Origin: a candidate division FCPU426 bacterium | GTDB lineage: Bacteria; Oederibacteriota; Muellerivitia; Muellerivitales; Muellerivitaceae | Assembly: GCA_963771075.1 (NCBI GenBank) | Contig: CAVYSE010000018.1 | Span: forward strand, 64,001-128,000 | Direction: 5' to 3' | DNA length: 64,000 bases | Shown here: piece after piece, positions 16,103 to 34,555 of the stretch | How positions within the stretch are numbered: the first letter of the stretch is position 1 | Layout of the letters: every line of letters starts with the position of its first letter | Notes under the pieces: generated by a model | The model's database searches: none | What the model saw: only the letters and a program-made list of their open reading frames with translations | Told to the model about the DNA's origin: nothing | Made by a program: the position numbers and the translations under genes

Positions 16103-18708
16103 AAAGTGAAATAGTTTTTATTCATTTACTTAACGACTTCTCAGGAAGCCCCAAGATACTCAGAGAAGTCATAGATATCGTTGGTAAAAGACAGATAAAC
16201 GCGAAACTTTATATCGGTAGTTCAGGCGAAGGGGTTCTTTCCAATTGCGGCATTCCGACGACCCGTTACTGGTATCACAGATCCAGGCATAGGATACTAA
16301 CCCTTTTCAACTATTTCTTTAGTCAAATCATCCTCTTCCATAAGCTTCTTTTTGATTGTTCCATGGACAAGAATTCGGTCATCTATGTGAATACCTTGCT
16401 CCCATTCGGCGCGGCACTTTATGGACGATTGACGGGAAAGAAGATCATCTATCACATTCACGAGATATCCATCACCCCCTCAACGCTCAAATACCTGTTA
16501 ACTGGCATTGCCAGGAAAACATCCTCTTTAAATCTATATGTATCAAACGCACATATGACGGCCTTGCCTCTCCCTGGGCCCCCTACAAAACGTGTATACA
16601 ACTCGCTCGATACTAATTTCATTCAGAACGCCATCAAAAACCCTTACACAGTTCAGTACGAAGGGAAATTCAATGTATTACTTATTGCCTCATTACGTGA
16701 TTACAAAGGAATTCCCGAACTTCTTGAATTAGCTTCTGGTTTACTCGCGAATAGCGATATTCATTTTCATCTTGTGGTGAATGACGACGAGCATCATATC
16801 GATCAGTATTTTTCAGGGAAGCCGGTTCCTTCGAACTTGACGGTTCATCCCCGGACTTCGGATACAACCCCTTTTTATCGAAAAGCCAATCTGGTATTGA
16901 ACCTTTCACGAGTTGACGAGTGGGTGGAAACATTCGGGTTAACGGTTCTTGAGGCCATGACATTCGGAATACCGGTCATCGTTCCCCCGGTGGGAGGCCC
17001 AGCGGAGCTTGTCAAAGATGGAGTCCAGGGTTTCCAAGTTGATTCACGTGATTCCGTGCTATTGAAAGAAAAAGTGCTGTTACTTTACAAAGACAAGCCC
17101 TTGTGCCAGAGGATGTCCTCTGCCGGTCGATCACGATCCGCAGAATTTTCACCGGAAGTTTTCACTAAAAATATCCTCCCGGCCATTGATGAGGTTCGAG
17201 AAAACATGGCGGATAATAACCGGCTAAAATTGGCCATTCTTGGAACCCGGGGAATCCCGGCCCGCTATGGAGGTTTTGAGACCTTCGCCGAGGAATTGGC
17301 CCAACGACTCGTTCCTAAAGGAATAGAAGTTACGGTTTTCTGTGAATCCGGAAACGGTCCTCAACTCATTGAATACAAAGGGATCAAGCTCGTATATCTT
17401 CCCGCTTCCAAATTGGGCCCTTTAACGACGATCCTTTTTGATCTTCGCTGTCTCTGGCATGCTCGCAGATCCTTTGACTTGGTCTACATGCTGGGTTATG
17501 GAGCCGCTCCCTTTTGCGTCATTCCCAGGTTCTGGGGCAGTAGGGTTTGGATCAACGTGGATGGGATCGAATGGGCAAGGGCCAAATGGAATGCCTTCGC
17601 AAAGTTTTACTTCAAGCTCATGGAACTCTTTTCTTTGTGGACCGCCGATCGGATCATTGCCGATGCGGAAGGTATCAAGGCCCATCTTCGGTCCCGCCAC
17701 CACTGGTTGCCTCCCTGCACCGTGATCCCCTATGGAGCGCCCGTTATTGACGTGGCGCCGGACAAAAACCTGCTCAAGGAATGGGATCTGAACCCCCGTG
17801 ACTACTATCTGGTGGTCGCGCGCCTGGAGCCCGAAAACTACATTCTGGAAATTATCGAAGGATATAAAAGTGCCGATACTTCCACTCCTCTGGTGGTGGT
17901 CGGCGATCATCAAGCCAACACCGCCTATATGAAGAAGCTTTTGGCATTAGCCTGTCCAAATATCCGGTTCATCGGTGGGGTTTACGATAAGGTCAAACTT
18001 CAGGCCCTTCGTTTTCATTCCGAAACCTATTTCCACGGGCATTCCGCAGGTGGGACCAATCCTTCCCTCCTGGAGGCTTTGGGCTGTGGCAACCTCGTCA
18101 TCGCTCACGACAATCCGTTCAATCGCGAAGTGGCTGGTGATCTTGGTTTTTATTTCAGGTCAAAAGAGGATATTCCGGAATTACTCAAAAAAATCGGCTC
18201 CATTCCCCCCGATAAGAGGGAAAGTCTTGCCCAGCAAGCCAAGTCCCGGATGAGGGATAAGTATGATTGGGACCAAATCGCGGAAAGATACAAAGCGCTT
18301 TTGGAAGAGGACAAGGACGTAAAACAAAAAACGAACCGTCCTTTTCTGAAAATTGCTTATTTTTGTTTGGCGCTCTTGATTCTCCAGGTTAGTTATTTCC
18401 TCTCTATTATTTTTTCAACTTCGATCCTCCCCGATAAACCCGGCGCAGTTGTCGTATTTGGTGGTGGAAGCAACCGGGCGGTGGAAGCCGTCCAAGTGGC
18501 CAAGACAACCAATAGTACAAACCTGGTCGTTTCGGATAATCAGCACACAACAATGGGGTCAAGTCTTCATTTTATAGTAACTATTCCAACCGCTTCTTCC
18601 TGCGCTAATGTTGTAAAATGGGCCATCGCGTATCCATTGTTCACGAGGTGGGCTAAAAGCACAAACACCTGGATGTGCCCAAATACCAGAAACAGGCAAT
18701 TAAATTGA
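16099..18708 (+). CDS. Tandem GT4-GT4(DUF1972) fusion continuing into a truncated YdcF/DUF218 domain, cut by the 435-bp element at about 18541
   Basis: ETFGLTVLEAM (GT4 no.1); ILGTRGIPARYGGFETF and GGTNPSLLEA (GT4 no.2, own ATG at 17206); TM + VVVFGGGSNRA (YdcF); the last residues are read from the element. Confidence 0.78.
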   Translation: MKSEIVFIHLLNDFSGSPKILREVIDIVGKRQINAKLYIGSSGEGVLSNCGIPTTRYWYHRSRHRILTLFNYFFSQIILFHKLLFDCSMDKNSVIYVNTLLPFGAALYGRLTGKKIIYHIHEISITPSTLKYLLTGIARKTSSLNLYVSNAHMTALPLPGPPTKRVYNSLDTNFIQNAIKNPYTVQYEGKFNVLLIASLRDYKGIPELLELASGLLANSDIHFHLVVNDDEHHIDQYFSGKPVPSNLTVHPRTSDTTPFYRKANLVLNLSRVDEWVETFGLTVLEAMTFGIPVIVPPVGGPAELVKDGVQGFQVDSRDSVLLKEKVLLLYKDKPLCQRMSSAGRSRSAEFSPEVFTKNILPAIDEVRENMADNNRLKLAILGTRGIPARYGGFETFAEELAQRLVPKGIEVTVFCESGNGPQLIEYKGIKLVYLPASKLGPLTTILFDLRCLWHARRSFDLVYMLGYGAAPFCVIPRFWGSRVWINVDGIEWARAKWNAFAKFYFKLMELFSLWTADRIIADAEGIKAHLRSRHHWLPPCTVIPYGAPVIDVAPDKNLLKEWDLNPRDYYLVVARLEPENYILEIIEGYKSADTSTPLVVVGDHQANTAYMKKLLALACPNIRFIGGVYDKVKLQALRFHSETYFHGHSAGGTNPSLLEALGCGNLVIAHDNPFNREVAGDLGFYFRSKEDIPELLKKIGSIPPDKRESLAQQAKSRMRDKYDWDQIAERYKALLEEDKDVKQKTNRPFLKIAYFCLALLILQVSYFLSIIFSTSILPDKPGAVVVFGGGSNRAVEAVQVAKTTNSTNLVVSDNQHTTMGSSLHFIVTIPTASSCANVVKWAIAYPLFTRWAKSTNTWMCPNTRNRQLN

Positions 18709-18983
18709 AACCGGAAGAGGTACTGGCGAAAGTAGCTAAAATCCATGGGGAAAAGTCGGGTGAGATATTGAAGGCTGGAAAAAGGGAGTCGGAAGCACGG
18801 GACGCGGCCATTTATTTGATGAAACGGAAATCGGGGATGAGTTCAATGGAAATTGGGGAAAAGATGGGCGTGGGTGCCAGCGCGGTGGGGAATCGGATAG
18901 CGATGGTAAAGAAGCGGATGGAGGGAGAGACACGGTTCAAGGCTCGGATAGATAATATAAAATGAAGACTTGACCCCATTGTT
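18549..18983 (+). mobile_element. 435-bp non-autonomous element, copy 1 (probable internally deleted HUH/RAYT-type element)
   Basis: Perfect 28-bp IR AACAATGGGGTCAAGTCTTCATTTTATA / TATAAAATGAAGACTTGACCCCATTGTT; apparently identical copies at 31540 and 32990. Confidence 0.88.
18675..18965 (+). CDS. Helix-turn-helix fragment resembling the DnaA-domain-IV-like C-terminus of RAYT/Y1 transposases
   Basis: EEVLAKVA...ARDAAIYLMKR...SMEIGEKMGVGASAV; stop lies in the right IR; same ORF at 31666 and 33116. Confidence 0.6.
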   Translation: MPKYQKQAIKLKPEEVLAKVAKIHGEKSGEILKAGKRESEARDAAIYLMKRKSGMSSMEIGEKMGVGASAVGNRIAMVKKRMEGETRFKARIDNIK

Positions 18984-18984
18984 C

Positions 18985-19541
18985 TTTATTTGGAGCTATG
19001 ACTTTGTGGCGGATCGAACGAGTGATACCCGGTCGTTGAGGTTTTTGACGGTGATAGACGAGTTCACGAGGGAGAACTTGGCTTTACCAGTACAGAGAAA
19101 GTTTACGGCAGATGACGTGCAGGCGACGCTGGCGGAGCTGTTCATCCAACGCGGAGTACCGGAATACATCCGCTCCGACAACGGCCCGGAGTTCACCGCG
19201 GAGAGGGTGAAGGATTGGCTGCCAAAGGTGGGAGTGAAGACCCTGTTCATTGAACCGGGAAGCCCTTGGGAGAACGGCTACAACGAGAGCTTCAACGGAA
19301 AATTCAGGGATGAACTGCTGAACGGCGAGTTGTTCGATACGGTGTGGGAAGCACGAGTGATCGCCGAAAGGTGGAGGAAGGAGTACAATACAAAACGGCC
19401 ACACAGTTCTTTGGGGTACCGGCCACCGGCCCCGGAGGCGGTCGCCATGGGGCCCAACAGCAACTTCAGGCCCATGTCGACCTCAACAAACTGAGTCTAT
19501 GGTGTGAGATTAGCGGTGGTACTAAAACCGGGGGCAGGTCA
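18985..19541 (+). mobile_element. IS3-family remnant (integrase core + right end only)
   Basis: WSYDF, IRSDNGPEF, PGSPWENGYNESFNGKFRDE, RPHSSLGY; terminus ...GGGGGCAGGTCA at 19541; 5' part replaced by the 435-bp element. Confidence 0.88.
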
Positions 19542-20864
19542 ACAGACCATTGGCTTGGTACATTCAAAGCTTGTTCCTCGACTTGATGTCTCGGAACAGA
19601 AGTATCAGGCCACCTTTTCAAAGAAGTCCGTGATGGATCGATGGGATAAGGGACTTCAAGCGTTGATCGGCTGACATTTGTTGGGCGAATTATTCCTCGC
19701 CAACCCCTTTGGAAAACTTTTTCCCTCCCGGATGCGTTTTTTTCTTGAAGGCCCGGCTTCCTCCGGTTTATTTTCACATCAATTGAAAGGGTACCCGATG
19801 ACTTGTGGTCATCGGGCTAGGGGAGAACCCAAGACAGCACTTGGCGGATAACTGTTAGCTTATCGCTAACGGCTACCAGCAAACCGCTAATGGCTATATT
19901 TGGAGGTTCCCCCATGGAATCAGCACAATCACCCGTTGGTCCTTCGGACCAGATGCCCTATCCCCTCAACCAAATCGTGATGGTTCCCATCGACGACCTG
20001 TGCGACCCGCCTTGGGACCCCCGGCCCGTCGTGGATGAGGGTCCCCTCCAGCTTCTCGTGGACTATATCGCTGGGGAAGGTTACACCCCTCCCATCCTGG
20101 CTTGGGTGGGGGATGGCCGAAAACCCTGGCCGGTGCTTTCCGGCAAACGCCGCCGATTGGCAAATCAACGGTTGGGGAAAACCGAAATCGCGACGATCTT
20201 CTTGGATTGCTCCGAAGAACGGGCAAAAGACCTGACTCAATCCACCAACGAGGACGATAAGCCCTATTGGCTGGGTTCTTGTATCCAAACCGAAACCAGG
20301 TTAGCGGAATTTGGTGAAAATTATGAGATCCTTGGAAAACGGATTGGAAAGACAAAATCCTGGGTTTCGAGAGCGATTTCGTTAACGAAATTACTTAGCA
20401 ATACTTCTCGGAAGATGATTTTCGACCAATATTTAAACGCAGTTGCGAATCGCAACTCAGTTCCAAAAAAAGAAGAAAATCAGGAAACGATCAGCGTAAA
20501 AAAGGGAAGAAAGGCGCAAAAAGAGGAAAATTTAGACGACAAACAATGGTTTTTGTTGGAATCGGTCGCTCTTGAATTATTGCCCCTTTTTAGGGGCCGG
20601 CCGGTGATAGAAGCCGTCCGGCTCGCCGATCAGGTGGTACCTGTCGTTCTTTCCCAAGAATTGGACGCGAAGGGCGTCGCCAAATTGGTTGGTATGTTGA
20701 ACAAGGGCCACGAGATATCCGACTTTATGGAACTCAACCTGAAGGGACCTGCGAAATCCCAATCCGGGGGCGCCACGGCAAAGGTTCATCATGCCGAGGG
20801 GGCTGATCCCGGTAATGGATCAGCACACCCAAAGAGTGACCCTCGGCTTGAGGCCTCGGGTCAG
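19542..20864 (+). repeat. 1.3-kb direct duplication, copy A (copy B at 30213-31535)
   Basis: Near-identical sequence at offset 10671 with only a few substitutions. Confidence 0.93.
19603..19674 (+). pseudogene. Orphan 3' end of the local GT4 paralog family (also at 30274-30345)
   Basis: TTTTCAAAGAAGTCCGTGATGGATCGATGGGATAA matches the 3' end of the GT ending at 30197. Confidence 0.8.
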
Positions 20865-23438
20865 GGGGCTGATCCTGGTAAGGGATCAGCACACCCAAAG
20901 AGTGACCCTCGGCTTGAGGCCTCGGGCCAGGGGGCTGATCCGCCAATTGAATCAGCACACCCAAAGAGTATGGCTCAGATTGAGGCTGAGCCACAGGGGG
21001 CTGGCCCTGAGGTGATTGTGGAGGAAGTCAAGAAGCCCACCTTAACCTTTTTTCAAAGGCTGAAATTATTCTGGCAGGGCATCCTCCAAGCATTTCGGAA
21101 CTTGCGGCAACCGCCTCCCGGGGAAACATCCCCCGCGAAATCGGACCCAACGAATCATGGTTCCGGTACAGGCGACCCTCCCAACGGGACCCAACCTGGA
21201 CCCACGGCCCAGGGGGCCGATTCTAGTATTGAATCGGCACTCCCCAAGAGTGGGCCGCAGCATGTGGCCGCGGCCCAGGGGGCCGATTCTAGTATTGAAT
21301 CGGCACTCCCCAAGAGTGGGCCGCAGCATGTGGCCGCGGCCCAGGGGGCCGATTCTAGTATTGAATCGGCACTCCCCAAGAGTGGGCCGCAGCATGTGGC
21401 CGCGGCCCAGGGGGCCGATTCTAGTATTGAATCGGCACTCCCCAAGAGTGGGCCGCAGCATGTGGCCACGGCCCAGGGGGCCGATTCTAGTATTGAATCG
21501 GCACTCCCCAAGAGTGGGCCGCAGCATGTGGCCACGGCCCAGGGGGTAAGACCAAGGGCTTCGCTAAAGGCTAATAGCCAACCGCCAAAGACTGTCTTTT
21601 CCGATTTTCTGGCTGACTTGGCCGAGGTCTTCCAAGGCTTTACCGCCGCCGGGGTGAAGGACTTTTTAGGCAAAATACCTGAGAACAAGTGGCAGGCCGT
21701 AGGTTATATCCTCGAAAAGGGCCTAAAAGGCGGGATCAAGTGCCTGGGGCATCTGCTTGTGGTGCTTGTGAAACATTTCTTTAAGCTGACGGGAAAGGGC
21801 ATCCACAACATCTCCAAATCCGTGGCCGCATGGGTCATGCCCATTCATTCCAGTAGCGGGTCCAGGTCCCACGGCACCCGAACCGGCCAGAATCCCCTCT
21901 TATATTTAGGCCACTGGGTGGTCTATGGGTTCATCACCTTGGCTTGCTATTCGATCGTGCTGGGGTCCATCGCGAACTTTATTCCGGTCATCGGACCCTG
22001 GATAAGGTCCGGGGAATGGACCTTCCTCCATCTTTTGCCCCAGGTGCCCCTTTGGCTGTTGGGTAAGATTTTACAACATCTTTGGATCTCCTTGGGTCTG
22101 TGGCTCATGCTTCTTTGGATGATCCACCGGGCCTTCAAGCCGGGTTTGGGGTGGCTCATCACTTTGTTTGTTCTTTTTCTCGCCGCCTGGCATTTCAAGG
22201 GTTGGGTGATGGATCAGTTACACCTTGATTTGCCGGCCTTCGAACCCAAGACGTCGGCCGCGGCCCAGGTCTCTGGCCCGAAGTCACAAACTGAGGGCGT
22301 CGGTTCTTCTTTAGAACCGACACACCCAAACCGTGGGCCTAATCTTGAAGATTCGGCCCAGGGGCATGATTTGAGAATACCCATTACCGAAAAAGGAATG
22401 GGTACCCCTCCACCTTTGTCGGCCCTTTCAGCCCCGCCGCCCACGGCGATTGTTTCCTCCCCACCCCCATCGGCGAAACCTAAACCTGCCGCAAAACTTA
22501 AGACCCCGCCTAAAAAGGTCTTAGTTGAAAGCCAAAGCGCAACACTTAAAACCGAGAACTCGGTCGCTCCCGTGGCTCTCCCCGGCGCACCCGCCACGGG
22601 GGAAGAGGCGGCGTGGGTGGCCGAGCTCATCCCCGCTTTTCACACGCCCTTCCTGGTGAAGCCTTTGGATCTTCAGCCTGACCCAACCATTTCCCCCGTC
22701 ATGGTCCAGAAAAGGCTTTCCGAAATCCAGGACCCCGAAAGGTTCCGCGTTTACGTGGGGCATGACCGCCAAACGATTAAATCCATGAACGTGGACGATG
22801 GCGGAATGGACCTATTCTTCAACGGCTCCTTCGGCGGGCTTTTGGGCGACTCATCCAGCTTTCGGTTCTTCTGGGAAGACGTGCAGGGCATCCGCCTGGC
22901 GACGGTGGAGGTTTCGGGCGACAAGCCGCAAACGCTTTGCTTTTGCGCGCTGGAAGTGAAGACCAAGAAAAAAATGGCGGCCTTCGAATGCGCGCCGGGG
23001 GACGTGGCCCATTTGGTGTCGGCCCTGGCGGCGCAGTTCAAAAGCTCCACGAAAAGGGAGGTATCGGTGGCGCCCCTGCCTTACCTGAACCAGGGTATGT
23101 GGCTGGGCGGGCAGAACCAGGTGGATGGGATGTGGAAGGAAAGCCCTGCGGGGCGGTCGCAAGAGGTGAAACTGCGCTTTACCCCGGCGGACTGGAAAAG
23201 GCCCACGACCGGCGGCGGAATCCGCCTGGGGGATTACCTTTGGAGCCTGGGCGTGAACCAGGATAACCAAACCGGGAAGGAAGAATTGCTCAGGCAGTTG
23301 GGCGGAACGGCCTCGGGACCGTCGACCCTTTTCGTGGTGGGCCCGGACGATTGGCGCAAGGCCCAGAATGCCGAGACCGGCCCCGAAAACGACCCCTTCA
23401 ACCCGCCCCGCAGGGCGGTGCGCCTGCCGGCGCCGTGA
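19914..23438 (+). CDS. ParB/Srx N-terminal domain + HTH + repeat linker + TM helices + C-terminal PDZ-like domain
   Basis: PWDPR, PPILAW, VLSGKRRRLA (ParB arginine patch), GKTKSWVSRAISL (HTH), hydrophobic block, SPAGR...GIRLGDYLWSL; GGAGG RBS before ATG 19914. Confidence 0.7.
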   Translation: MESAQSPVGPSDQMPYPLNQIVMVPIDDLCDPPWDPRPVVDEGPLQLLVDYIAGEGYTPPILAWVGDGRKPWPVLSGKRRRLANQRLGKTEIATIFLDCSEERAKDLTQSTNEDDKPYWLGSCIQTETRLAEFGENYEILGKRIGKTKSWVSRAISLTKLLSNTSRKMIFDQYLNAVANRNSVPKKEENQETISVKKGRKAQKEENLDDKQWFLLESVALELLPLFRGRPVIEAVRLADQVVPVVLSQELDAKGVAKLVGMLNKGHEISDFMELNLKGPAKSQSGGATAKVHHAEGADPGNGSAHPKSDPRLEASGQGADPGKGSAHPKSDPRLEASGQGADPPIESAHPKSMAQIEAEPQGAGPEVIVEEVKKPTLTFFQRLKLFWQGILQAFRNLRQPPPGETSPAKSDPTNHGSGTGDPPNGTQPGPTAQGADSSIESALPKSGPQHVAAAQGADSSIESALPKSGPQHVAAAQGADSSIESALPKSGPQHVAAAQGADSSIESALPKSGPQHVATAQGADSSIESALPKSGPQHVATAQGVRPRASLKANSQPPKTVFSDFLADLAEVFQGFTAAGVKDFLGKIPENKWQAVGYILEKGLKGGIKCLGHLLVVLVKHFFKLTGKGIHNISKSVAAWVMPIHSSSGSRSHGTRTGQNPLLYLGHWVVYGFITLACYSIVLGSIANFIPVIGPWIRSGEWTFLHLLPQVPLWLLGKILQHLWISLGLWLMLLWMIHRAFKPGLGWLITLFVLFLAAWHFKGWVMDQLHLDLPAFEPKTSAAAQVSGPKSQTEGVGSSLEPTHPNRGPNLEDSAQGHDLRIPITEKGMGTPPPLSALSAPPPTAIVSSPPPSAKPKPAAKLKTPPKKVLVESQSATLKTENSVAPVALPGAPATGEEAAWVAELIPAFHTPFLVKPLDLQPDPTISPVMVQKRLSEIQDPERFRVYVGHDRQTIKSMNVDDGGMDLFFNGSFGGLLGDSSSFRFFWEDVQGIRLATVEVSGDKPQTLCFCALEVKTKKKMAAFECAPGDVAHLVSALAAQFKSSTKREVSVAPLPYLNQGMWLGGQNQVDGMWKESPAGRSQEVKLRFTPADWKRPTTGGGIRLGDYLWSLGVNQDNQTGKEELLRQLGGTASGPSTLFVVGPDDWRKAQNAETGPENDPFNPPRRAVRLPAP
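20802..20995 (+). repeat. Three in-frame 66-bp double-hairpin modules (type 1)
   Basis: GCTGATCC-N7-GGATCAGC + linker + 27-nt hairpin; period 66. Confidence 0.9.
21216..21541 (+). repeat. Five in-frame 66-bp double-hairpin modules (type 2)
   Basis: GCCGATTC-N7-GAATCGGC + TGGGCCGC...GCGGCCCA; encodes GADSSIESALPKSGPQHVA(A/T)AQ. Confidence 0.93.
22299..22360 (+). repeat. Single diverged double-hairpin module
   Basis: GTCGGTTC-N7-GAACCGAC + ACACCCAAACCG + TGGGCCTAAT-CTTGAAG-ATTCGGCCCA. Confidence 0.8.
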
Positions 23439-23446
23439 GGATTTCC

Positions 23447-23493
23447 GGGGCCAGGCCTCCAATTTCCATTTTTGGGGCCCCGGCCCGGAGGGG
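23447..23493 (+). repeat. Dispersed GGGGYCAGGC..TTTCCRTTTTT..CCCGGC boundary repeat
   Basis: Similar copies at 26822/28153 (split by IS110), 38749 and 40155. Confidence 0.72.
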
Positions 23494-23604
23494 TGCTGTC
23501 AGGCAAGACGCATCGAAGCCCCCGTCGAAACCATCGGTATTGTCACAAGATGAGCGATTGGGTGTATAATCGGAAAGTAGGAATAAGTAGGAAAGTGAGA
23601 AAAT

Positions 23605-23865
23605 ATGGCATCCGTTCGAATCCGTGAAAAAGGCCAAATGACCCTGCCGAATTCCCTTCGGCGGGAAATGGGTTGGAGTTCCGAATATTTCGTCAATGCC
23701 GTCAAGGTGGGGGATTCGGTCCTGTTGATCCCCAAACCCGTCGTGGGGGACGCTCTCGCCCGCAAGGCGGCCCGGACCATGAAAACCCAGGGAATCACCC
23801 TCAGGGACCTATTGGGTGAACTGAAAAAAGCCAGGAAAGATTACTCCAAAAAAGATGCCCGCTAA
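23605..23865 (+). CDS. AbrB/MazE/SpoVT-family antitoxin
   Basis: VRIREKGQMTLPNSLR; overlaps the PIN gene; upstream AAGTAGGAA direct repeats after TATAAT. Confidence 0.85.
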   Translation: MASVRIREKGQMTLPNSLRREMGWSSEYFVNAVKVGDSVLLIPKPVVGDALARKAARTMKTQGITLRDLLGELKKARKDYSKKDAR

Positions 23866-24301
23866 CCGGTTTTTGAGGGTTTTCCTCGACGCCAGCGTTT
23901 GGGTGGCAGGGATCGTTTCCGAGAAGGGCGCCGCGCGGGAAATTCTCCGCTTGACGGAGGCGGGTCTTTTGGAAGTGACAGTATCAGAACAGGTGATCGT
24001 GGAGTTGGACCGTGTGATGAACGCGAAATTTCCGGAGCTTGTGCCGGAGGTACGTGGGTTTCTCAAGGCGGTCCGGCCCCGGGCGGTGGATGATCCGACG
24101 GAACAGGAAATCCGGGCCTTTCGGAGTGTCCTGGAGGCGGGGGATGCAAGCATCCTCGCGGCGGCGGAACGGGAAAAAGTGGATTACCTGGTGACCTGGG
24201 ACCGAAATGATTTTCTTAAGGGAAACGCGCAAAAACTATCTAAATGCCGGATCACCGACCCGGGTGATTTTTTAAGGGCTTTCCGGGAATACATAGGGTA
24301 A
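23855..24301 (+). CDS. PIN-domain toxin
   Basis: RVFLDASV, GDASILAAA, YLVTWDRNDF. Confidence 0.85.
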   Translation: MPANRFLRVFLDASVWVAGIVSEKGAAREILRLTEAGLLEVTVSEQVIVELDRVMNAKFPELVPEVRGFLKAVRPRAVDDPTEQEIRAFRSVLEAGDASILAAAEREKVDYLVTWDRNDFLKGNAQKLSKCRITDPGDFLRAFREYIG

Positions 24302-24433
24302 ATGACCAACCTGAAGGGATCAGATTTCAAGCGACGCGGGGGAGTATCTGAAAATAGGGAATTAGCCCAGGGCCCTTTTGGGTCACTCACTTAACACCCT
24401 TTTCACCGCCAAGAACGCCAAGAACACCTAAAT

Positions 24434-24528
24434 GGGAATCGATGGGCGGTGATAAAAATACGCGTGGAAAAAGACCGGCGATTGGAGAAGATGGTCCATA
24501 AGTGTCAAGTGTTGTCCTGACCCCATTT
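24434..24528 (+). mobile_element. Diverged right-end remnant related to the 435-bp element
   Basis: Encodes GNRWAVIKIRVEKDRRLEKMVHKCQVLS*, cf. GNRIAMVKKRMEGETRFKARIDNIK*; ends TGACCCCATT. Confidence 0.68.
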
Positions 24529-24542
24529 TCGCGCGGGATGGT

Positions 24543-25568: not shown

Positions 25569-25635
25569 CAATGGTCGCGCGGATGATTCTACTCAAACTA
25601 TTTTGGAAACCTTTTTTCGAGGCTTGAAAGGTCTG

Positions 25636-25670
25636 TTGACCGATTTAATATTAGATATTAAAATTGCATC
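25636..25670 (+). promoter_or_regulatory. sigma70-type promoter with palindromic operator, probably leaderless
   Basis: TTGACC-17-TAAAAT, ATG 7 nt downstream, no SD; TTTAATAT-TAG-ATATTAAA at 25644-25662. Confidence 0.6.
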
Positions 25671-26822
25671 ATGTATCTCCATCGGTTACTGGAAAAGACA
25701 CTGTCCCAGGTCCAAAAAGCATTCCCCGCCGTTGTCCTGACTGGCCCCCGGCAGTCGGGGAAGAGCACTCTTTTACGCCATTTCCTGGCGGCCCGGAAAC
25801 CCACGATCCTTTCGCTGGAGGACCCGCGGACCCGTTCACTCATCGCGGAAGACCCCTTGACCTACCTCCGACGGCTTCCCAAACCGGCGGTATTGGATGA
25901 GATCCAGTATTACCCGGACATCACGGTTTACGTGAAAATGATCGTGGATGCCGACCGGAAACCCGGCCAATGGTTCTTGACGGGCTCCCAGCAGTTCACC
26001 CTGATGCGCCACGTATCCGAGTCGATGGCCGGCCGGGCCGCCATCTTGACCCTTCCCCCGATCCAAATGGGGGAACGGAAAAAGACACCCAACTTGGAGG
26101 GCTTTATGGCGGGTCCCAGCTACCCGCAACCCCTGCTTGCCCCCAAAAAACATGCCGCCCTTTGGTATTCTTCCTACCTCCAGACTTACCTGGAGCGGGA
26201 CATCCGAACCCAGCTCGCCGTCTCGGATTTGCGGGATTTCGAGAAATTGATCAGGCTTCTCGCGGCCCGGACGGCCCAGGTGCTCGATTACACATCCCTG
26301 GCGGGGCCCTTGGGCTTGAGCGTGCCCACCGTTAAAAGATGGGTTTCGGCGCTCTCGGCCGGTTACATCATCCACTTGCTCCAGCCCTATTACGAGAATT
26401 TCGGAAAACGCATCATCAAGGCCCCCAAGATTTACTTTTACGATCCCGGTTTGCCGGCTTATTTGCTCCGGCTGGACCAGGGCCCCCCTGTCCAGCATGG
26501 GCCCATGGCGGGAGCCCTATTCGAAAACGCGGTGGTCTCCGAAATGCTGAAGGCCGGATGGGCGAAAGGGACACAGCCGGAGTTCTATTATTGGCACTCC
26601 CAAGGCGGGATGGAGGTGGACCTGCTCGTTCCCGGCCAGGGCGGATACGACCCGGTCGAAATCAAGCTGGCGTCCCGGTTGAAGGCGGACCATGCCCGTA
26701 ACCTGAAATACTGGCTGGAACTTTCCGGGCGAAAAAATGCGGTGGGGACTCTGGTCACCGATTCCAAAGAGGAATTTCCGGGCGCCAAAATCCGGAACAT
26801 GCATTGGGAAAATCTGTTATAG
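25671..26822 (+). CDS. AAA_14 ATPase with DUF4143 / C-terminal nuclease-like domain
   Basis: GPRQSGKST, VLDEIQ, LTGSQ, APKIYFYDPG, EVDL...VEIK. Confidence 0.9.
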   Translation: MYLHRLLEKTLSQVQKAFPAVVLTGPRQSGKSTLLRHFLAARKPTILSLEDPRTRSLIAEDPLTYLRRLPKPAVLDEIQYYPDITVYVKMIVDADRKPGQWFLTGSQQFTLMRHVSESMAGRAAILTLPPIQMGERKKTPNLEGFMAGPSYPQPLLAPKKHAALWYSSYLQTYLERDIRTQLAVSDLRDFEKLIRLLAARTAQVLDYTSLAGPLGLSVPTVKRWVSALSAGYIIHLLQPYYENFGKRIIKAPKIYFYDPGLPAYLLRLDQGPPVQHGPMAGALFENAVVSEMLKAGWAKGTQPEFYYWHSQGGMEVDLLVPGQGGYDPVEIKLASRLKADHARNLKYWLELSGRKNAVGTLVTDSKEEFPGAKIRNMHWENLL

Positions 26823-26840
26823 GGGTCACCTATGAAAAAG

Positions 26841-26994
26841 AATGTCCAGGCAAAAGCGTAGTATCACGGCCCCAAGTCCAACCTGAGTCTCAAAGGACTA
26901 CAAGTCAGTCACCTATTCGCGGTTGTTTCACCGCACGATAACGTTGGACCCGGCCGCTCAATCAGGCCAAGGACCTCAACTCTTGCGGGTTGTG
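26841..26994 (-). ncRNA. Predicted bridge/seek RNA of the IS110 element
   Basis: Non-coding end downstream of the recombinase, with segments matching both sides of the circle junction and the target, the donor pair enclosed by a stem. Confidence 0.65.
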
Positions 26995-28017
26995 TCAGAC
27001 CCCGTCGGAGCTGGCCGGGCAGTCCTCAAAAGCTTCCTTCTTTCGTAACATATGAAAGATGCTTTTCAGCATAGCCCTTGCTACTGCTATTCGTCCCGCG
27101 TTATTCCCATGCTTCTTCTTCACCCTCGTGTATAAGGTCCCATACCGTCGGGTTTTGCGAATGGCATGAAGCGAGTTCTCAACCAATATCCAGCGAATCC
27201 ATTTAGAACCCTGTTTGGTGATGTGGCCGTTGTGGCTTTTTCCCCCTGATGCGTGAACACTGGGGACCAATCCACCATAAGAACATAGATGTTCCGCGTC
27301 CGGGAACCGGCGAATATCCCCAATCTCGCTCAAAATTAATAAAGCCGAAAAGGCACCCACGCCTGGCATGGTCATCATCAGCTGGGCTTCCGGGCTTTCT
27401 GCTGCCATTTTCTTGATCACCTCTTCTGATTTGGCGATCTCTTGGCCTAGTTCCCGGATTACTTCCATATATCCGTCCAGTTCCAAACGGTAGCAAGGCC
27501 GGGTACCTACCGTGGCAAGTTCGCGGAAGTTCTTTATTCCGAATCGGTTTTTAGTAACGGGTTCGATTCCCGCCTTGGTCATGACCGAAGTCATCCGGTT
27601 TTTGGCTTGTGTTCTCAATTGCACCAGGGAAGCCCGGTACCTAAGGATTTCCCGTAAGTCGCGGATCTCTCGGGGTGGCACATAGGCTCGTGGCAGCAGA
27701 TCCACCCGCAAAAGTTGAGCCAGGATTCCCGAATCAATTTTATCCGTCTTGATCTTGGCCGAGGCTATGGCTTTGACCTTTTGGGGGTGGGCCAATACCA
27801 GGTTGGGGAATCGATCCTCGATGAGTTCGTAAAAGTGATACCAATGACCTGTGGCTTCTACTACGACCTGGCTACTCACGGGTTGCTTCTTGAAATAAGC
27901 CTTTAAAGTATCCGCGTCGTTCTTCAGATCGACTTGTTCCAGCACCTTTCCTTTCTCATTCACTCTCGTGACGTAGGATGTTTTCTGGTGTAGGTCTACT
28001 CCGATATACTGTCCCAC
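26995..28017 (-). CDS. IS110-family DEDD recombinase
   Basis: IGVDLH, VVEATG, KTDKID, GLVPSVHASGG, ITKQG. Confidence 0.95.
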   Translation of the reverse strand: MGQYIGVDLHQKTSYVTRVNEKGKVLEQVDLKNDADTLKAYFKKQPVSSQVVVEATGHWYHFYELIEDRFPNLVLAHPQKVKAIASAKIKTDKIDSGILAQLLRVDLLPRAYVPPREIRDLREILRYRASLVQLRTQAKNRMTSVMTKAGIEPVTKNRFGIKNFRELATVGTRPCYRLELDGYMEVIRELGQEIAKSEEVIKKMAAESPEAQLMMTMPGVGAFSALLILSEIGDIRRFPDAEHLCSYGGLVPSVHASGGKSHNGHITKQGSKWIRWILVENSLHAIRKTRRYGTLYTRVKKKHGNNAGRIAVARAMLKSIFHMLRKKEAFEDCPASSDGV

Positions 28018-28396
28018 GGCTGCACCTCCTAAGCGTTTTGCACCACCTGCAAAGGTGAGTGCCTTTTCGACTCTGGGTTTATCCTAGAGCCTCGTCCCAC
28101 TTAAGTGGAGACGCTCTACGCTTGGAGCTCTGCAGCCTTTTTCATGTTATCAGGCTACCATTTTCCATTTTTCAAACCCGGCTCCGGCTGGGCCATGGGG
28201 AGCCCGAACCCAGGCAGAGGCTTCTATTGATTGTCGCTTGATGGGACCAAGTCCCCGACGCTCTTTGACGGGAGAACTCAAAACTTAATCTCCCTGTTAC
28301 CTAATCTAAAAGCCGAAAACATCCGGTCATGCAGGCGGGCATCATGTTGGATTGTGAATAGGGCTATAATACGGGAAACACCGAAGGAGGCGTCCC

Positions 28397-28627
28397 TTGA
28401 CCTGGCAAGATCGAATCATTATTAATCCTGAAGTCATGGTAGGAAAACCCATTGTTAAGGGTACCCGGATTACGGTTGAGTTCATTTTCGGCTTATTGGC
28501 CCAAGGGTGGAAAACCGATGAAATCCTCAAGAATTATCCTGGCATTGAACGTGAGGATATCCAGGCTTGCCTGATTTACGCGAGTGATGTTTTGCGCGCC
28601 GAAAAAGTTTATCCCCTTCCCGTATAA
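28397..28627 (+). CDS. DUF433-family antitoxin
   Basis: RIIINPEVMVGKPIVKGTRITVE...YPGIEREDIQAC; AAGGAGG RBS. Confidence 0.9.
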   Translation: MTWQDRIIINPEVMVGKPIVKGTRITVEFIFGLLAQGWKTDEILKNYPGIEREDIQACLIYASDVLRAEKVYPLPV

Positions 28628-28629
28628 AT

Positions 28630-28818
28630 ATGCGTTTTTTAGCTGATGAGAATTTTCCCGGTTCTGTTGTCGAAACCCTGAGGTTTGAAGGGCATGATGT
28701 TTTTTGGGCCAGGGTGGATTCCCCGGGGACAAAGGACAGGAGCCTCCTTTCCCGCGCGGAGGATGAGGGCCGGATCCTTTGGCCTGATGATGTCGCGCCT
28801 GATTCTTGTATGGAATAG
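28630..28818 (+). pseudogene. DUF5615 PIN-like toxin, truncated and joined to a GT 5' fragment
   Basis: MRFLADENFP...EGRIL, then switches to WPDDVA. Confidence 0.82.
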
Positions 28819-28860
28819 GCACGCCCAATCTTGCGCCTCGGCTTGAAGACCTCGGCGCGG
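28797..28860 (+). repeat. Double-hairpin module outside the ParB-like ORF
   Basis: GCCTGATTC-TTGTATG-GAATAGGC ACGCCCAATC TTGCGCCTCGG-CTTGAAG-ACCTCGGCGCG. Confidence 0.72.
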
Positions 28861-28984
28861 GTCCATCATCGTGAGTTTTCAAACAGTTGGTGCGAATGAT
28901 TAAAAAAGTTCTTGTGCTAAATCATTACGGATTCGACTCCCTATGGTCGCTCACCGCAGGCTATTTCTTTGAGGTGGATTAAGA

Positions 28985-30197
28985 ATGAATAAGATCCTCA
29001 TTCTTAACCATTACTACTGGCCTGATGATGTCGCTTCTGCCCGTCATTACACCGACTTTTGCGAGGATTTCGGCGAAGAGGGGTTATTCGGTCGAGGTTT
29101 GGCCTTGCAACCGGAGCTGTCACCACTATGAGGAAAAGTACCCTTGTGGGCGGGAGATCAAAAACGGGGTCCTCATCCGCCGGGTTTGGAGGCCGCCGTT
29201 CAAGCAGCATTCCAACCTGGGCCGGATGATCGACGCCCTCTGGGTGATGGCGGTTTGGAAACTGCGGTTTTTTACCCTCTTCGGGTCCCGGCCCGACCTG
29301 TTGGTCATCGGGACCGACCCCATCTTCAGCCTTTTACTCGTTCCCCTTTTTAGGCTGTTGCACCCGAAAGTGAAGGTGGTCCATTGGTGCTTCGACCTCT
29401 ACCCCGAATACCCGGTGGCCGCGGGGATGGTGCGGGAAAACCACTGGGCGGTGCGGGCACTGGGGGCCCTGATGGAGAAGGCCTACGGCGCCTGCGACCT
29501 GGTGGCCGACCTGGGGCCCTGCATGAGGCGGCAGCTTGAAAAATATCCCGCGAAATCCCGGGCCACCCTGCCCCCCTGGGCACTGGAAGAACCCCCTTCG
29601 CCTTTGTCTTTCGACCCGGCGGAACGGAAGGAACTTTTCGGTGACTCGCGGCTGGGCCTGCTCTATTCGGGAAATTTCGGTCTGCCCCATGCCTTTGAGC
29701 TGAGTTTGGCTCTGGCCCGCCGGTTGAAAAGCCAATCCACTACATTGACCTACAGCGCCCATGGGAGCCGGATAGAAGAACTCAAGGGGGCTTTGACGCC
29801 CAAGGACACGAATATCCGTTTTGTTTCCTTTGTCCCGCCGGATCGTTTGGCTGCCCGTCTGAGCGCCCCGGATGTCCATGTGGTCAGCCTGCGCCCCGAG
29901 TGGGCGGGGCTGGTGGTGCCATCCAAATTTTTTGGGGTTTTGGCGGTGGGCCGCCCGGTATTATTCGAGGGGGATGGGGGTTCTTCCATCGCCCAATGGA
30001 TCAAGGAGCACCAAGTCGGTTGGATCCTGCGGCCGGACAACCTGGAGGAAGTGGCGGGGGACTTGGTGAGATTTTCGGTGGATGACGCCAGGAAAGCGGC
30101 GATGTTCAAGCATTGCAACTCCGTTTACCAAGCCTATTTTTCAAAGAAGTCCGTGATGGATCGATGGGATAAAGAATTGAAAAATATAATCGGGTGA
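28985..30197 (+). pseudogene. GT4 (WbuB/WcaI-like) with +1 frameshift near 29070
   Basis: MNKILILNHYYWPDDVASARHYTDFCED in one frame, AKRGYSVEVWPCNR onward in the next. Confidence 0.8.
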
Positions 30198-30212
30198 TTG
30201 GGACCCTCCATC

Positions 30213-31535
30213 ACAGACCATTGGCTTGGTACATTCAAAGCTTGTTCCTCGACTTGATGTCTCGGAACAGAAGTATCAGGCCACCTTTTCAAAGAAGTCC
30301 GTGATGGATCGATGGGATAAGGGACTTCAAGCGTTGATCGGCTGACATTTGTTGGGCGAATTATTCCTCGCCAACCCCTTTGGAAAACTTTTTCCCTCCC
30401 GGATGCGTTTTTTTCTTGAAGGCCCGGCTTCCTCCGGTTTATTTTCACATCAATTGAAAGGGTACCCGATGACTTGTGGTCATCGGGCTAGGGGAGAACC
30501 CAAGACAGCACTTGGCGGATAACTGTTAGCTTTTCGCTAACGGCTACCAGCAAACCGCTAATGGCTATATTTGGAGGTTCCCCCATGGAATCAGCACAAT
30601 CACCCGTTGGTCCTTCGGACCAAATGCCCTATCCCCTCAACCAAATCGTGATGGTTCCCATCGACGACCTGTGCGACCCGCCTTGGGACCCCCGGCCCGT
30701 CGTGGATGAGGGTCCCCTCCAGCTTCTCGTGGACTATATCGCTGGGGAAGGTTACACCCCTCCCATCCTGGCTTGGGTGGGGAATGGCCGAAAACCCTGG
30801 CCGGTGCTTTCCGGCAAACGCCGCCGATTGGCAAATCAGCGGTTGGGGAAAACCGAAATCGCGACGATCTTCTTGGATTGCTCCGAAGAACGGGCAAAAG
30901 ACCTCACTCAATCCACCAACGAGGACGATAAGCCCTACTGGCTGGGTTCTTGTATCCAAACCGAAACCAGGTTAGCGGAATTTGGTGAAAACTATGAGAT
31001 CCTTGGAAAACGGATTGGAAAGACAAAATTCTGGGTTTCGAGAGCGATTTCGTTAACGAAATTACTTAGCAATACTTCTCGGAAGATGATTTTCGACCAA
31101 TATTTAAACGCAGTTGCGAATCGCAACTCAGTTCCAAAAAAAGAAGAAAATCAGGAAACGATCAGCGTAAAAAAGGGAAGAAAGGCGCAAAAAGAGGAAA
31201 ATTTAGACGACAAACAATGGTTTTTGTTGGAATCGGTCGCTCTTGAATTATTGCCCCTTTTTAGGGGCCGGCCGGTGATAGAAGCCGTCCGGCTCGCCGA
31301 TCAGGTGGTACCTGTCGTTCTTTCCCAAGAATTGGACGCGAAGGGCGTCGCCAAATTGGTTGGTATGTTGAACAAGGGCCACGAGATATCCGACTTTATG
31401 GAACTCAACCTGAAGGGACCTGCGAAATCCCAATCCGGGGGCGCCACGGCAAAGGTTCATCATGCCGAGGGGGCTGATCCCGGTAATGGATCAGCACACC
31501 CAAAGAGTGACCCTCGGCTTGAGGCCTCGGGTCAG
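30213..31535 (+). repeat. 1.3-kb direct duplication, copy B
   Basis: Matches 19542-20864; ends a few bases before the 435-bp element. Confidence 0.93.
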
Positions 31536-31568
31536 CAGCAACAATGGGGTCAAGTCTTCATTTTATAG
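30585..31568 (+). pseudogene. Truncated duplicate of the ParB-like gene (ParB + HTH only)
   Basis: Near-identical to the 19914 ORF up to ...LEASGQ, then QQQWGQVFIL* from the element IR. Confidence 0.85.
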
Positions 31569-31974
31569 TAACTATTCCAACCGCTTCTTCCTGCGCTAAT
31601 GTTGTAAAATGGGCCATCGCGTATCCATTGTTCACGAGGTGGGCTAAAAGCACAAACACCTGGATGTGCCCAAATACCAGAAACAGGCAATTAAATTGAA
31701 ACCGGAAGAGGTACTGGCGAAAGTAGCTAAAATCCATGGGGAAAAGTCGGGTGAGATATTGAAGGCTGGAAAAAGGGAGTCGGAAGCACGGGACGCGGCC
31801 ATTTATTTGATGAAACGGAAATCGGGGATGAGTTCAATGGAAATTGGGGAAAAGATGGGCGTGGGTGCCAGCGCGGTGGGGAATCGGATAGCGATGGTAA
31901 AGAAGCGGATGGAGGGAGAGACACGGTTCAAGGCTCGGATAGATAATATAAAATGAAGACTTGACCCCATTGTT
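31540..31974 (+). mobile_element. 435-bp element, copy 2
   Basis: Same 28-bp IRs and internal sequence. Confidence 0.9.
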
Positions 31975-32396
31975 CCCAGATTACCGTCACCGGTGCCATG
32001 TCCCCTTACGCCCTCACGATCGATGGCACCAACCAGCTGAGCGGTTGGGCCGGAACGGCCACTTATACTGGAAACCAGGGGTTCGTGGACGGCTGCCGCG
32101 GGATCTTCGTGGAGAGCTACACGGCCGGCACGGTGGTGGTTGGGACGACGCCCAGTGGCAACAATAACCAAACCTGGATCAATACCAACGGGGCAAGCTT
32201 CAGCCAAGTGGGCGGCGGTGGCGGCAGCACCAACGTTTGCACCACCCAGACCGCGGATATCCTGGCCTTCTGGGACGAAACGGGATCGGGTGGTACGATC
32301 CAGGCCGGCGACCCCTATGTTCTTTATTCGAGCCAATCCTCCAGCACAACGCCGAACCTCACCATCACGCTGACGGATTCCCAAACCTGGCCCTGA
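31975..32396 (+). pseudogene. 3' fragment of a Gly/Thr-rich secreted or surface protein
   Basis: Reading frame begins abruptly at the element end; extracellular-type composition; followed by a terminator. Confidence 0.55.
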
Positions 32397-32431
32397 TTTG
32401 ACGGAGGCATTGTAGTCATCTTCCGATGACC

Positions 32432-32466
32432 AAAGCCCGGATGAGAAATCATTCGGGCTTTTTTTA
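32432..32466 (+). terminator. Rho-independent terminator
   Basis: AAAGCCCGGATGA-GAAA-TCATTCGGGCTTT followed by a T run. Confidence 0.8.
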
Positions 32467-32598
32467 TTCTCCCGGGTCCCCTACCTCGAATTTGATCCAG
32501 GTCTCACGCTGCGGTGTGTGAGTTTCGCAAATCGAGCAAGGACTTGGGCCCCTAGGGAGCCTTCGCGGCGGGGATGGCCAGCCGGTTTGGGGCCTCTC

Positions 32599-32850
32599 TT
32601 AGGCCGGCTTCCGCGCTCTGCGTCCATAGGCTACGAACGCGGCCAGGAGGGCCGGCACCACACTCCAGAGCATGCCTGGAAACCCGGCGTACTGGGTGAA
32701 AAGCGCGCAGCCCAACAGCGAGTTGAGGGCCAGGCAGGCGGCCGGGAGAAAACCGCTCATCCAGGCCCCTCGGATCTCTTCATAATGGGAGAACGTGTAG
32801 GCCCCCCCGATCAGGTTCCACAAGGCCAGTAAGATTTGAAGCACCCATAA
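32599..32850 (-). pseudogene. DoxX-like membrane protein remnant
   Basis: LWVLQILLALWNLIGG...LLAAFVAYGR; no clear in-frame start or RBS. Confidence 0.45.
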
Positions 32851-32919
32851 ATGGGGGTGTTTGAATTAGGTATACTTTTACGGAATTAGGGTTTCACGCC
32901 AATCTTAGGAGGCTTATAG

Positions 32920-32985
32920 ATGAGGAAGTTCATTTATGTTTCCGCGTTGATCCTGGCGGCCGGTTTTACCCGTCTTTGGCCGGTG
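32920..32985 (+). pseudogene. 5' stub of a gene cut by element copy 3
   Basis: AGGAGG RBS, MRKFIYVSALILAAGFTRLWPV, then QQQWGQVFIL*. Confidence 0.6.
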
Positions 32986-32989
32986 CAGC

Positions 32990-33424
32990 AACAATGGGGT
33001 CAAGTCTTCATTTTATAGTAACTATTCCAACCGCTTCTTCCTGCGCTAATGTTGTAAAATGGGCCATCGCGTATCCATTGTTCACGAGGTGGGCTAAAAG
33101 CACAAACACCTGGATGTGCCCAAATACCAGAAACAGGCAATTAAATTGAAACCGGAAGAGGTACTGGCGAAAGTAGCTAAAATCCATGGGGAAAAGTCGG
33201 GTGAGATATTGAAGGCTGGAAAAAGGGAGTCGGAAGCACGGGACGCGGCCATTTATTTGATGAAACGGAAATCGGGGATGAGTTCAATGGAAATTGGGGA
33301 AAAGATGGGCGTGGGTGCCAGCGCGGTGGGGAATCGGATAGCGATGGTAAAGAAGCGGATGGAGGGAGAGACACGGTTCAAGGCTCGGATAGATAATATA
33401 AAATGAAGACTTGACCCCATTGTT
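32990..33424 (+). mobile_element. 435-bp element, copy 3
   Basis: Same 28-bp IRs and internal sequence. Confidence 0.9.
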
Positions 33425-33428
33425 CTTG

Positions 33429-33699
33429 GGAAGAGGTACTGGCGAAAGTAGCTAAAATCCATGGGGAAAAGTCGGGTGAGATATTGAAGGCTGGAAAAAG
33501 GGAGTCGGAAGCACGGGACGCGGCCATTTATTTGATGAAACGGAAATCGGGGATGAGTTCAATGGAAATTGGGGAAAAGATGGGCGTGGGTGCCAGCGCG
33601 GTGGGGAATCGGATAGCGATGGTAAAGAAGCGGATGGAGGGAGAGACACGGTTCAAGGCTCGGATAGATAATATAAAATGAAGACTTGACCCCATTGTT
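33429..33699 (+). mobile_element. Partial tandem copy (right 271 bp) of the element
   Basis: Repeats 33154-33424 at offset 275, including the right IR. Confidence 0.9.
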
Positions 33700-34549: not shown

Positions 34550-34555
34550 TTAAGT

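Follow-up and report, generated by a model that had tools for sequence, protein, structure and literature searches.

How does a short repeat come to stand between pieces of unrelated genes? This question is raised by a 64,000-nt window (the whole stretch of DNA that we analysed) of a candidate division FCPU426 genome, in which a 435-bp repeat occurs three times and its copies border on broken genes. On balance, the comparison of sequences favours the following answer. The repeat is a non-coding TIRtron remnant whose ends are likely processed singly and in trans by an intact A-family HUH/Y1 enzyme, which would leave tandem duplications and flank losses.

The three full copies occupy positions 18549..18983, 31540..31974 and 32990..33424. 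They are identical in sequence and all lie on the plus strand, a co-orientation that is not significant by itself. Their inverted repeats (TIRs; 18549-18576 and 18956-18983 in copy 1) are perfect over 28 bp and still match at 88% when extended to 43 bp. Copies 2 and 3 have a 5-nt leader, GCAGC, in common, and contig C21 carries one more full copy (97.7%) as well as a piece of 206 bp. A sequence-only reading of this DNA had reported the same copies, orientation and perfect repeats and the lack of a flanking duplication. We can confirm all of this: in 20 paired elements of the genome there is no target duplication, the longest flank repeat averaging 2.9 nt vs 3.1 nt in 380 mismatched pairs. The same reading had listed a partial copy. 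Additional element sequence does exist beside copy 3, but it forms the second unit of a 275-bp sequence that is exactly duplicated in tandem (33154..33703, plus strand; 33154-33428 = 33429-33703) with a blunt joint at 33428/33429. This duplication starts 10 nt outside the right core, runs into the element and takes in 4 nt (CTTG) past the inverted repeat.

Intact homologues confirm the cut for four of five neighbours of the copies, all on the plus strand. At the left end of copy 1, the 5' third of a YdcF/DUF218-type gene (18349..18548) breaks off. The piece aligns to residues 13-86 of a 204-aa frame, and the 3' part was not found in the assembly. The label comes from the homologue; Pfam did not match DUF218 in the short window piece. 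Copy 2 is joined, 10 nt outside its left core, to the 5' part of a ParB-like gene (30213..31535). This 1323-bp block duplicates 19542-20864 with 8 substitutions (99.4%), and the intact 1182-aa gene (19890..23438) serves as the uncut reference, the cut falling after 20864. Copy 3 begins at a signal-peptide-like stub of 23 codons (32920..32989), a candidate truncation for which homologue searches found no relative. The claim that all three left ends cut genes thus holds for the YdcF-type and ParB-like genes, while the stub stays a candidate. The right ends do join the middle of other sequences, as had been claimed. Copy 1 meets, 11 nt outside the core, the last 553 bp of an IS3-family element of ~1.27 kb (18989..19541), whose 5' ~715 bp were not found in the assembly. 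Copy 2 meets the last 139 codons of a lipoprotein-like gene of ~400 aa (31977..32396), which begin at residue 252-257 of 390-397-aa homologues, and copy 3 meets the element itself. The missing halves are absent from the opposite element ends. We also considered the stub at 32920 and the tail at 31977 as halves of one circularly permuted gene and rejected this, as the tail has homologues of ~400 aa that resemble lipoproteins and whose N-terminus is unrelated.

TIR ends and cut genes are many, and they cluster in a glycosyltransferase and toxin-antitoxin region. A second TIRtron family (B) is represented by a solo right end (24433..24532, plus strand), which joins, 6-9 nt outside its core, a 5'-truncated glycosyltransferase gene (24533-25568). 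The core of another solo TIR end is interrupted by an IS110-family element (26827..28154, minus strand), a bystander that targets TIRs.

The remnant contains a 96-codon 3' end of a TIRYT gene (18675..18965, plus strand in copy 1) with a DnaA-IV-like helix-turn-helix. An in-frame stop lies 7 codons upstream of its incidental GTG. The match to Bac_DnaA_C (E 1.3e-4) is below the cut-off. On another contig, two intact 313-aa genes encode HUH/Y1 and DnaA-IV-like domains, and their TIRs match those of the remnant at 25-27 of 28 positions. Families B and C match at 18/28 and 22/28. The search for a parent that could act in trans has therefore produced two intact candidates; the A-family gene lies at C3:235067-236005. 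Parent A1 matches Y1_Tnp (E 1.8e-12) and, above the cut-off, Bac_DnaA_C (E 3.6e-9). The parents carry the motifs HYH and YVVLNP. An AlphaFold model of the parent, built from 7 sequences and with a weak HUH half (mean pLDDT 57.9), was used only for the fold match: it matches DnaA domain IV with an rmsd of 1.5-1.8, and the top Foldseek hit is 4er8, in line with a Y1 fold related to that of TnpA-REP. The TIR core reads GGGGTCAG in the parents (8/8 to GGGGWSAS) and GGGGTCAA in the remnant (7/8). Positions 91-344 of the element are 66-72% identical to B/C/G014-type parents and positions 334-435 are 91% identical to an A-type parent; a direct parent was not found in the assembly. By its features, the 435-bp element is a non-coding TIRtron remnant that has lost the catalytic half and combines sequence of two families. 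The enzyme is likely supplied in trans by intact copies at other places of the genome, where 17 of 20 Y1_Tnp matches are of the TIRYT type.

TIRYT/TIRtron (Di Nocera et al. 2013, PMC3733652), TnpA-Y1 subclass 2.1.2 (Quentin et al. 2018, PMC6006769) and Group 1 RAYT (PMC5581495) are names for the same class. By features alone, we would place the parents of the remnant in it, with the 435-bp element as a derivative. HUH and a Y---NP core, a Bac_DnaA_C-like tail, long TIRs with GGGGWSAS, solo and clustered TIRs and the lack of REPs are all as in TIRtrons. A 435-bp copy without its catalytic half, patched together from two families, is unlike typical TIRtrons. The ORF had earlier been likened to the C-terminus of a REP-associated Y1 transposase. 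The Y1/HUH origin and the DnaA-IV-like tail bear this out, but the REP association does not fit: the folding of six end sequences of 80 nt is no more stable than that of shuffles (z -0.87 to +1.36), a GTAG foot was seen in none of the ends inspected, and the class already exists as TIRYT/TIRtron.

Where exactly do the ends join? In 11 joints with a near-identical intact neighbour copy, the joint lies 5, 5, 7, 8, 8, 9, 9, 10, 10, 10 and 13 nt outside the GGGGTCAG core, and three stutter joints have offsets of 13, 6 and 5. We left out the joint at C3:4581, whose apparent parent resembles another insertion site. The far side has no common motif, with 9 different target-side dinucleotides in 14 tabulated joints. 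At several joints (C24, C28, G014), 1-3 nt are explained by neither known parent. Duplications that start outside one end and run inward occur at 8 of 88 candidate ends of this genome (8, 9, 13, 20, 36, 161, 240 and 275 nt); a further one measures 981 bp. G014 has one at 1/28 ends (120 bp). Other genomes have them at 17 of 92 ends (from 46/79 loci), including the RefSeq (NZ_) records L149 and L154, vs 0/400 flank control positions, where the scan covered units of at most 300 nt. A frequent end point of the duplications lies 6-9 nt inside the core. Seven duplications first called flank-only all contain core copies as we read their flanks, and five are at ends also called inward; we did not count them as outward. 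These inward duplications at single ends support the earlier claim that the ends act independently. They are stronger evidence for one-ended activity than flanks that fail to rejoin.

IS200/IS605 elements have subterminal hairpins and no TIR, and insert precisely 3' of a fixed tetra- or pentanucleotide; here TIRs are present, the hairpin is absent and the flank is not fixed. The REPtron of E. coli (TnpA-REP/REP-BIME; PMC3333891, PMC8266576) shares a related Y1 fold and cuts at a variable distance from its binding site, which here is read from the joints. Unlike the REPtron, the elements studied here have no GTAG guide and no hairpin, carry a DnaA-IV-like domain and lose flanks at the kilobase scale. 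The joining of C to T (or C to A) is also absent, since the joints, read from products, have no dinucleotide in common. The IS91 family is described with HUH chemistry, one-ended events and no target duplication (PMC13181058), but also with ori and ter ends that differ, with palindromes and with a fixed CTTG/GTTC target. TIRtron ends here are symmetric, behave alike and have no fixed target; CTTG/GTTC does stand beside some A- and D-family ends, yet it is conserved neither across the families nor over 92 ends elsewhere. Like MITEs and IS-mediated adjacent deletions (PMC11708052), the remnant is a short non-autonomous inverted-repeat element with deletions and duplications at its ends. Unlike in DDE MITEs, the matching enzyme is of the HUH type, the joints vary from 5 to 13 nt outside the core instead of falling on a fixed terminal base, and target duplications are missing.

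We propose the following scheme. The DnaA-IV-like tail would bind the TIR, and the HUH domain would nick the strand that reads flank, then GGGG, at a loose distance of ~5-14 nt, staying on the 5' end of the element as a phosphotyrosine. A free 3'-OH would reseal the nick. If host polymerase extends the nick's own 3'-OH before resealing, an inward tandem duplication of 8 to ~1000 nt would arise, in many cases with its end 6-9 nt into the core. A 3'-OH that has been trimmed, or that originates farther out or on a sister strand, would lead to deletion of the flank and a cut in the neighbouring gene. The mosaic would be the outcome of repeated rounds; copy 3 may have arisen from copy 2 by inward duplication, with erosion of the right flanks afterwards. 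The polarity of the nicked strand is read only from the missing motif at the variable side, as the shape of the duplications is silent on the strand. The lack of a hairpin at the ends, which a single-strand enzyme would have to engage, counts against the scheme. A nick-extend-reseal model for tandem amplification was proposed earlier for TnpA-REP and BIMEs (PMC3333891), and the TnpA-REP phosphotyrosine was resolved in vitro by the 3'-OH of an added oligonucleotide (PMC8266576).

Could simpler processes explain the joints? Assembly error can almost be dismissed, even though contig ends hold more TIRtron loci than expected (6 of 19 within 3 kb vs 3.8%) and public contigs, in a comparison whose stretch did not include copy 1, show neither the ParB joint nor the 275-bp joint. 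Parts of that stretch without coverage carry no weight either way. The left joint of copy 3 is bridged by public contigs of two runs from two studies, one of which may be the source sample. At 8 sites the duplicated ParB block departs from its parent, although public runs show the 19.5-kb alleles at these positions (runs with small word shares were left out). The missing gene halves have not been moved to a wrong place but are not in the assembly at all, and unrelated genomes contain the same type of joint. Alternatively, elements may insert with both ends and without target duplication, after which homologous recombination between identical direct copies deletes the DNA between them and pairs the left and right flanks of different insertions. 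The copies are identical and co-oriented, the lost halves fit such deletions, and recombination is described as a common cause of missing target duplications (PMC11708052). Therefore, flanks that do not rejoin, which had been taken to exclude simple insertion, are no proof of one-ended activity; what stands of that claim is that these are no ordinary insertions and that the missing halves do not turn up at the opposite end. Recombination may explain some joints, and a flank lost by deletion would look the same as one lost from the target site at insertion or through recombination between copies. As a general account it is improbable. It cannot yield duplications that run from 5-14 nt outside one TIR into the element, nor ends joined to the middle of another TIRYT gene (C5:95330, C28:305931). 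Unrelated gene pieces also flank isolated full-length copies (for example, an ECF sigma and an M48 peptidase piece), and none of 40 loci has the same Pfam family on both sides, although this comparison has low power: only 15 of 76 frames were matched, with matches on both sides in only 2 loci. Genomes of the same genus (~70-87% alike) offered no empty site; there, the flanks lie on separate contigs.

One-ended strand transfer of the IS608/IS91 type is unlikely. The enzyme would cut an element end and a distant target, which might lie on the other strand or on a sister chromatid at the fork, and join them; excised circles may re-insert. The predicted duplications and deletions have identical shapes, IS91 one-ended transposition without target duplication is known among HUH relatives (PMC13181058), and near-identical full-length copies at distant loci need some long-range route. 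However, such enzymes cut fixed di- or tetranucleotides, which the varied dinucleotides at our joints do not resemble, and the many duplications that halt shortly inside the core look like stalled extension. The sequence-only reading went further and proposed a DNA-shuffling system. If the host maintained a programme for building new functional genes of a polysaccharide island out of gene fragments, the clustering in the glycosyltransferase and toxin-antitoxin region would make sense. This is very improbable. At all joints the frames are truncated and stop within the remnant, the missing halves are lost and not stored, joint positions are loose rather than site-specific, and the full-length genes are multi-copy, like selfish elements. 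We found no functional fusion or reversible switch, just pseudogenes and lost halves, so shuffling overstates the case. In the proposed scheme the TIRtron is a local mutator and not a programmed shuffling system.

Little points to other carriers of these ends. A metagenome scan for the TIR gave 5 matches, of which only L035 looked related. There is no sign of frequent carriage on vectors, with one distant plasmid record (39%) and one viral-contig fragment. Two loose ends in public contigs (X3 at 31975, X1 at 24529) lead into flanks that we did not find in the assembly; other strains or parent elements may be their source.

TIRYTs are listed as the second largest Y1 subclass, present in 14.9% of strains (PMC6006769). 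In the accessible text of the literature, we found no TIRYT mechanism, no junction analysis and no account of cutting or movement, although an action of the enzyme on the TIR has been proposed. In this genome, intact enzymes occur together with non-autonomous substrates that match them, and the parents of over a dozen joints are known. Hence, the TIRYT question becomes a concrete assay of the strand, the 5-14-nt cutting window and the products. For Group 1 RAYTs a duplication rate of 6.2% was reported, and a later preprint describes them as single-copy and unable to duplicate. Unlike in this picture, families A (98.6%), B (99.1-99.5%) and D (98.7-99.8%) are present here at distant loci in 2-4 copies each. 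Elements that copy at about 99% identity and destroy neighbouring genes speak against a static, domesticated view of Group 1 RAYTs. More tentatively, the TIRtron end could be a rolling-circle origin without a terminator: through its DnaA-like domain the HUH nickase would dock on duplex DNA, and aborted cycles of nick-extend or nick-trim would turn the end into a self-perpetuating local amplifier and eraser of genes. If true, this would be a third mode of Y1 transposases beside IS200/IS605 and REP-RAYT, in a subclass carried, as described, by about 15% of strains (PMC6006769).

Three full, identical copies of the 435-bp remnant lie at window positions 18549, 31540 and 32990 (copies 1, 2 and 3), each with the perfect 28-bp IR that a sequence-only reading had described. 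The partial copy listed there is present too, but it belongs to an exact 275-bp tandem duplication as its second unit, and the duplication takes in 4 nt beyond the IR. On contig C21 of the same assembly (4.39 Mb, 28 contigs) lie one more copy, the fourth (97.7%), and a fragment of 206 bp. Sequencing runs that contain this DNA carry the label bog or soil metagenome.

Full-length HUH genes, candidate parents of the kind that the sequence-only reading had proposed to search for, exist in this genome. There are 20 Y1_Tnp matches, 3 short ones of the IS200 type and 17 of a ~315-aa type, the latter spread over at least five TIR families. Two genes of family A are intact and encode 313 aa (C3:235067-236005 and C3:341992-342930); the family also has one broken-frame copy and several fragments. 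Its genes show HYH and Y---NP motifs and match Y1_Tnp (E 1.8e-12) and Bac_DnaA_C (E 3.6e-9). The suspected likeness of the remnant ORF to the DnaA-IV-like HTH of Y1 transposases is supported. A low-confidence structure model of the parent matched TnpA-REP (4er8) best and also DnaA domain IV.

The remnant matches the family A TIR at 25-27 of 28 positions, C at 22 and B at 18. It is mosaic. Over positions 91-347 it is 66-72% like parents of families B and C and of another genome, G014; over positions 334-435 it is 91% like A. The GTG of its ORF corresponds, in C-type parents, to the valine of LDVPKYQK, and an in-frame stop lies 7 codons upstream. When reversed, the left arm (window 18577-18638) resembles a decayed TIRYT gene 3' end (RKKRLE-stop), so a back-to-back fusion of two right ends may have made the remnant. 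A solo arm similar to this left arm occurs in locus L035 and at C3:99708-99767.

The element fits TIRYT/TIRtron (PMC3733652) and subclass 2.1.2 (PMC6006769). No hairpin formed at the element ends. Full-length TIRtrons exist in near-identical copies (A 98.6%; three of B 99.1-99.5% and a fourth 90%; D 98.7-99.8%), and G014 has seven near-complete copies at about 98%. This likeness shows that TIRtrons reach new sites by copying, whatever the route. For Group 1 RAYTs, PMC5581495 gives 6.2% duplication, and 10.1101/2021.07.10.451892 says they are unable to duplicate. In this genome full-length copies, too, adjoin unrelated gene pieces.

As had been claimed, none of the remnant copies' flank pairs rejoins into one gene. 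Left ends do truncate a DUF218-type and a ParB-like gene, both with intact homologues, but the 23-codon stub left of copy 3, a putatively truncated gene, has no homologue in our searches. Left of copy 1, the DUF218-type piece matches residues 13-86 of a 204-aa frame in G014; the genome's single DUF218 match is a separate paralogue, not the rest of this gene. Right of copy 1 is the 3'-terminal 553-bp piece of an IS3 (82%-identical homologue of ~1.27 kb in genome G002), with no other piece in the assembly. Copy 2 is preceded by a 1323-bp duplicate, with 8 substitutions, of the ParB-like gene intact at 19890-23438, and followed by the final 139 codons of a gene whose protein homologues are 390-397 aa long; for its missing middle domain only paralogues match elsewhere in the assembly. 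A second-family solo end (24433-24532) cuts a glycosyltransferase gene that extends further upstream in genome G001.

The ParB-like gene contains 66-bp hairpin-forming repeats (window 20797-21546) whose GGGTCAG ends resemble the TIR core, and this is precisely where copy 2 joins. At 16099-18708 one 869-codon frame takes in a pair of glycosyltransferases along with the 5' portion of YdcF, by real fusion or lost stops. A glycosyltransferase gene start (to 'WPDDVA') is present five times at 28779-29034 and 34550-35003, and between these starts lie toxin-antitoxin genes, a 151-bp tandem repeat and a hairpin-like spacer of ~100 nt. In the fifth one the start runs directly into the 3' end of the gene, and these joints have no TIR. 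An IS110-family element appears to target TIRtron ends, because each of its seven identical full copies (window 26827-28154; C3:100063, C11:539613, C19:80270, C21:11808, C26:74989, C28:109761) interrupts a TIR-like core (GGGGT|CAGG), and these cores belong to several TIRtron families. In G014, the same 27-nt hairpin interrupts the right TIR of four full-length TIRtrons (L049, L051, L056, L057), and short units repeated in frame form long tandem arrays beside TIRtron ends at L048, L049, L056 and L064.

Mapping 65 ends gave 11 non-stutter joints whose neighbour also exists intact in near-identical form (one joint was dropped). All 11 lie 5-13 nt outside the GGGG-containing core of the TIR (G4 core). 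Their target sides share no common dinucleotide. Three stutters, tandem repeats running from outside the core into the element, have offsets of 13, 6 and 5. Exact tandem duplications of 8-275 nt from the joint zone into the core or element occur at 8 of this genome's 88 candidate ends, a set that includes false positives. A further inward unit of 981 bp was found separately on C24, and C28 has a ~650-bp repeat with its joint 13 nt out. G014 has an inward duplication at 1 of 28 ends. In other genomes, the 79 top-ranking of 589 confirmed loci include 46 with a detectable TIR pair (92 ends), and 17 of these ends carry inward duplications of 8-902 nt, compared to 0 of 400 control positions scanned for units no longer than 300 nt. 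Many of the units stop 6-9 nt within the core. Seven 'flank-only' duplications were considered as outward events and rejected; by our reading all contain core copies.

Target duplications are absent, as had been noted. With boundaries allowed 4-14 nt from the core, the longest flank direct repeat of 20 paired elements of all families averages 2.9 nt (maximum 5), compared to 3.1 nt in 380 mismatched pairs. No Pfam family occurs on both element sides in 76 flank frames of 40 loci, of which just 15 frames matched. At L106, L125, L145 and L151 TIRtrons adjoin genes that are whole or almost whole (DHQase, GatB, alanyl-tRNA synthetase family); one may speculate that flank erosion stopped there at needed genes.

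What we see directly is a loosely fixed joint zone beside the TIRs with a far side that is free, duplications that run inward, loss of flanks and no TSD. In a scheme drawn from the TnpA-REP model of BIME amplification (PMC3333891) and general HUH chemistry (PMC8266576), the HTH would bind the TIR, and the enzyme would nick the flank-then-GGGG strand and stay on the element's 5' end. A 3'-OH would then do the resealing: one that was extended would leave a duplication, one that was trimmed or came from farther away a deletion. The choice of strand is our inference, as the shape of a duplication does not reveal polarity. A rival model has the enzyme cut both sites, by analogy with IS91 one-ended transposition (PMC13181058). 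Recombination between identical copies (PMC11708052) could have given the window's unmatched flanks, but it cannot yield inward duplications. The observation behind the proposed DNA-shuffling system is real; a programmed system it is not.

Wholesale misassembly is unlikely. We compared public contigs of four runs over window 23500-33030. The left joint of copy 3 is bridged by one contig each from runs X1 and X2, which belong to separate studies (X1 is possibly the source); at the right joint of copy 2 this X1 contig covers no more than 29 nt of the element side. Neither the ParB joint nor the 275-bp joint is among the pieces listed, a list that omits 19 loose ends and 111 pieces; like both copy-1 joints, they are seen in this assembly alone. 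Contigs of X2 and X7 continue the way the uncut ParB-like gene does, and the ParB alleles listed are those of the 19.5-kb block. Six of 19 hand-listed TIRtron loci lie within 3 kb of contig ends (3.8% expected), which fits population variation or repeat breaks.

The literature searched holds no junction analysis or mechanism for TIRYT/TIRtron, and the supplements of PMC3733652 and PMC6006769 may list flanks. The class is already named; new here are the inward direction of duplication and the offset window. The element is real, and the mechanism proposed for it can be put to the test.
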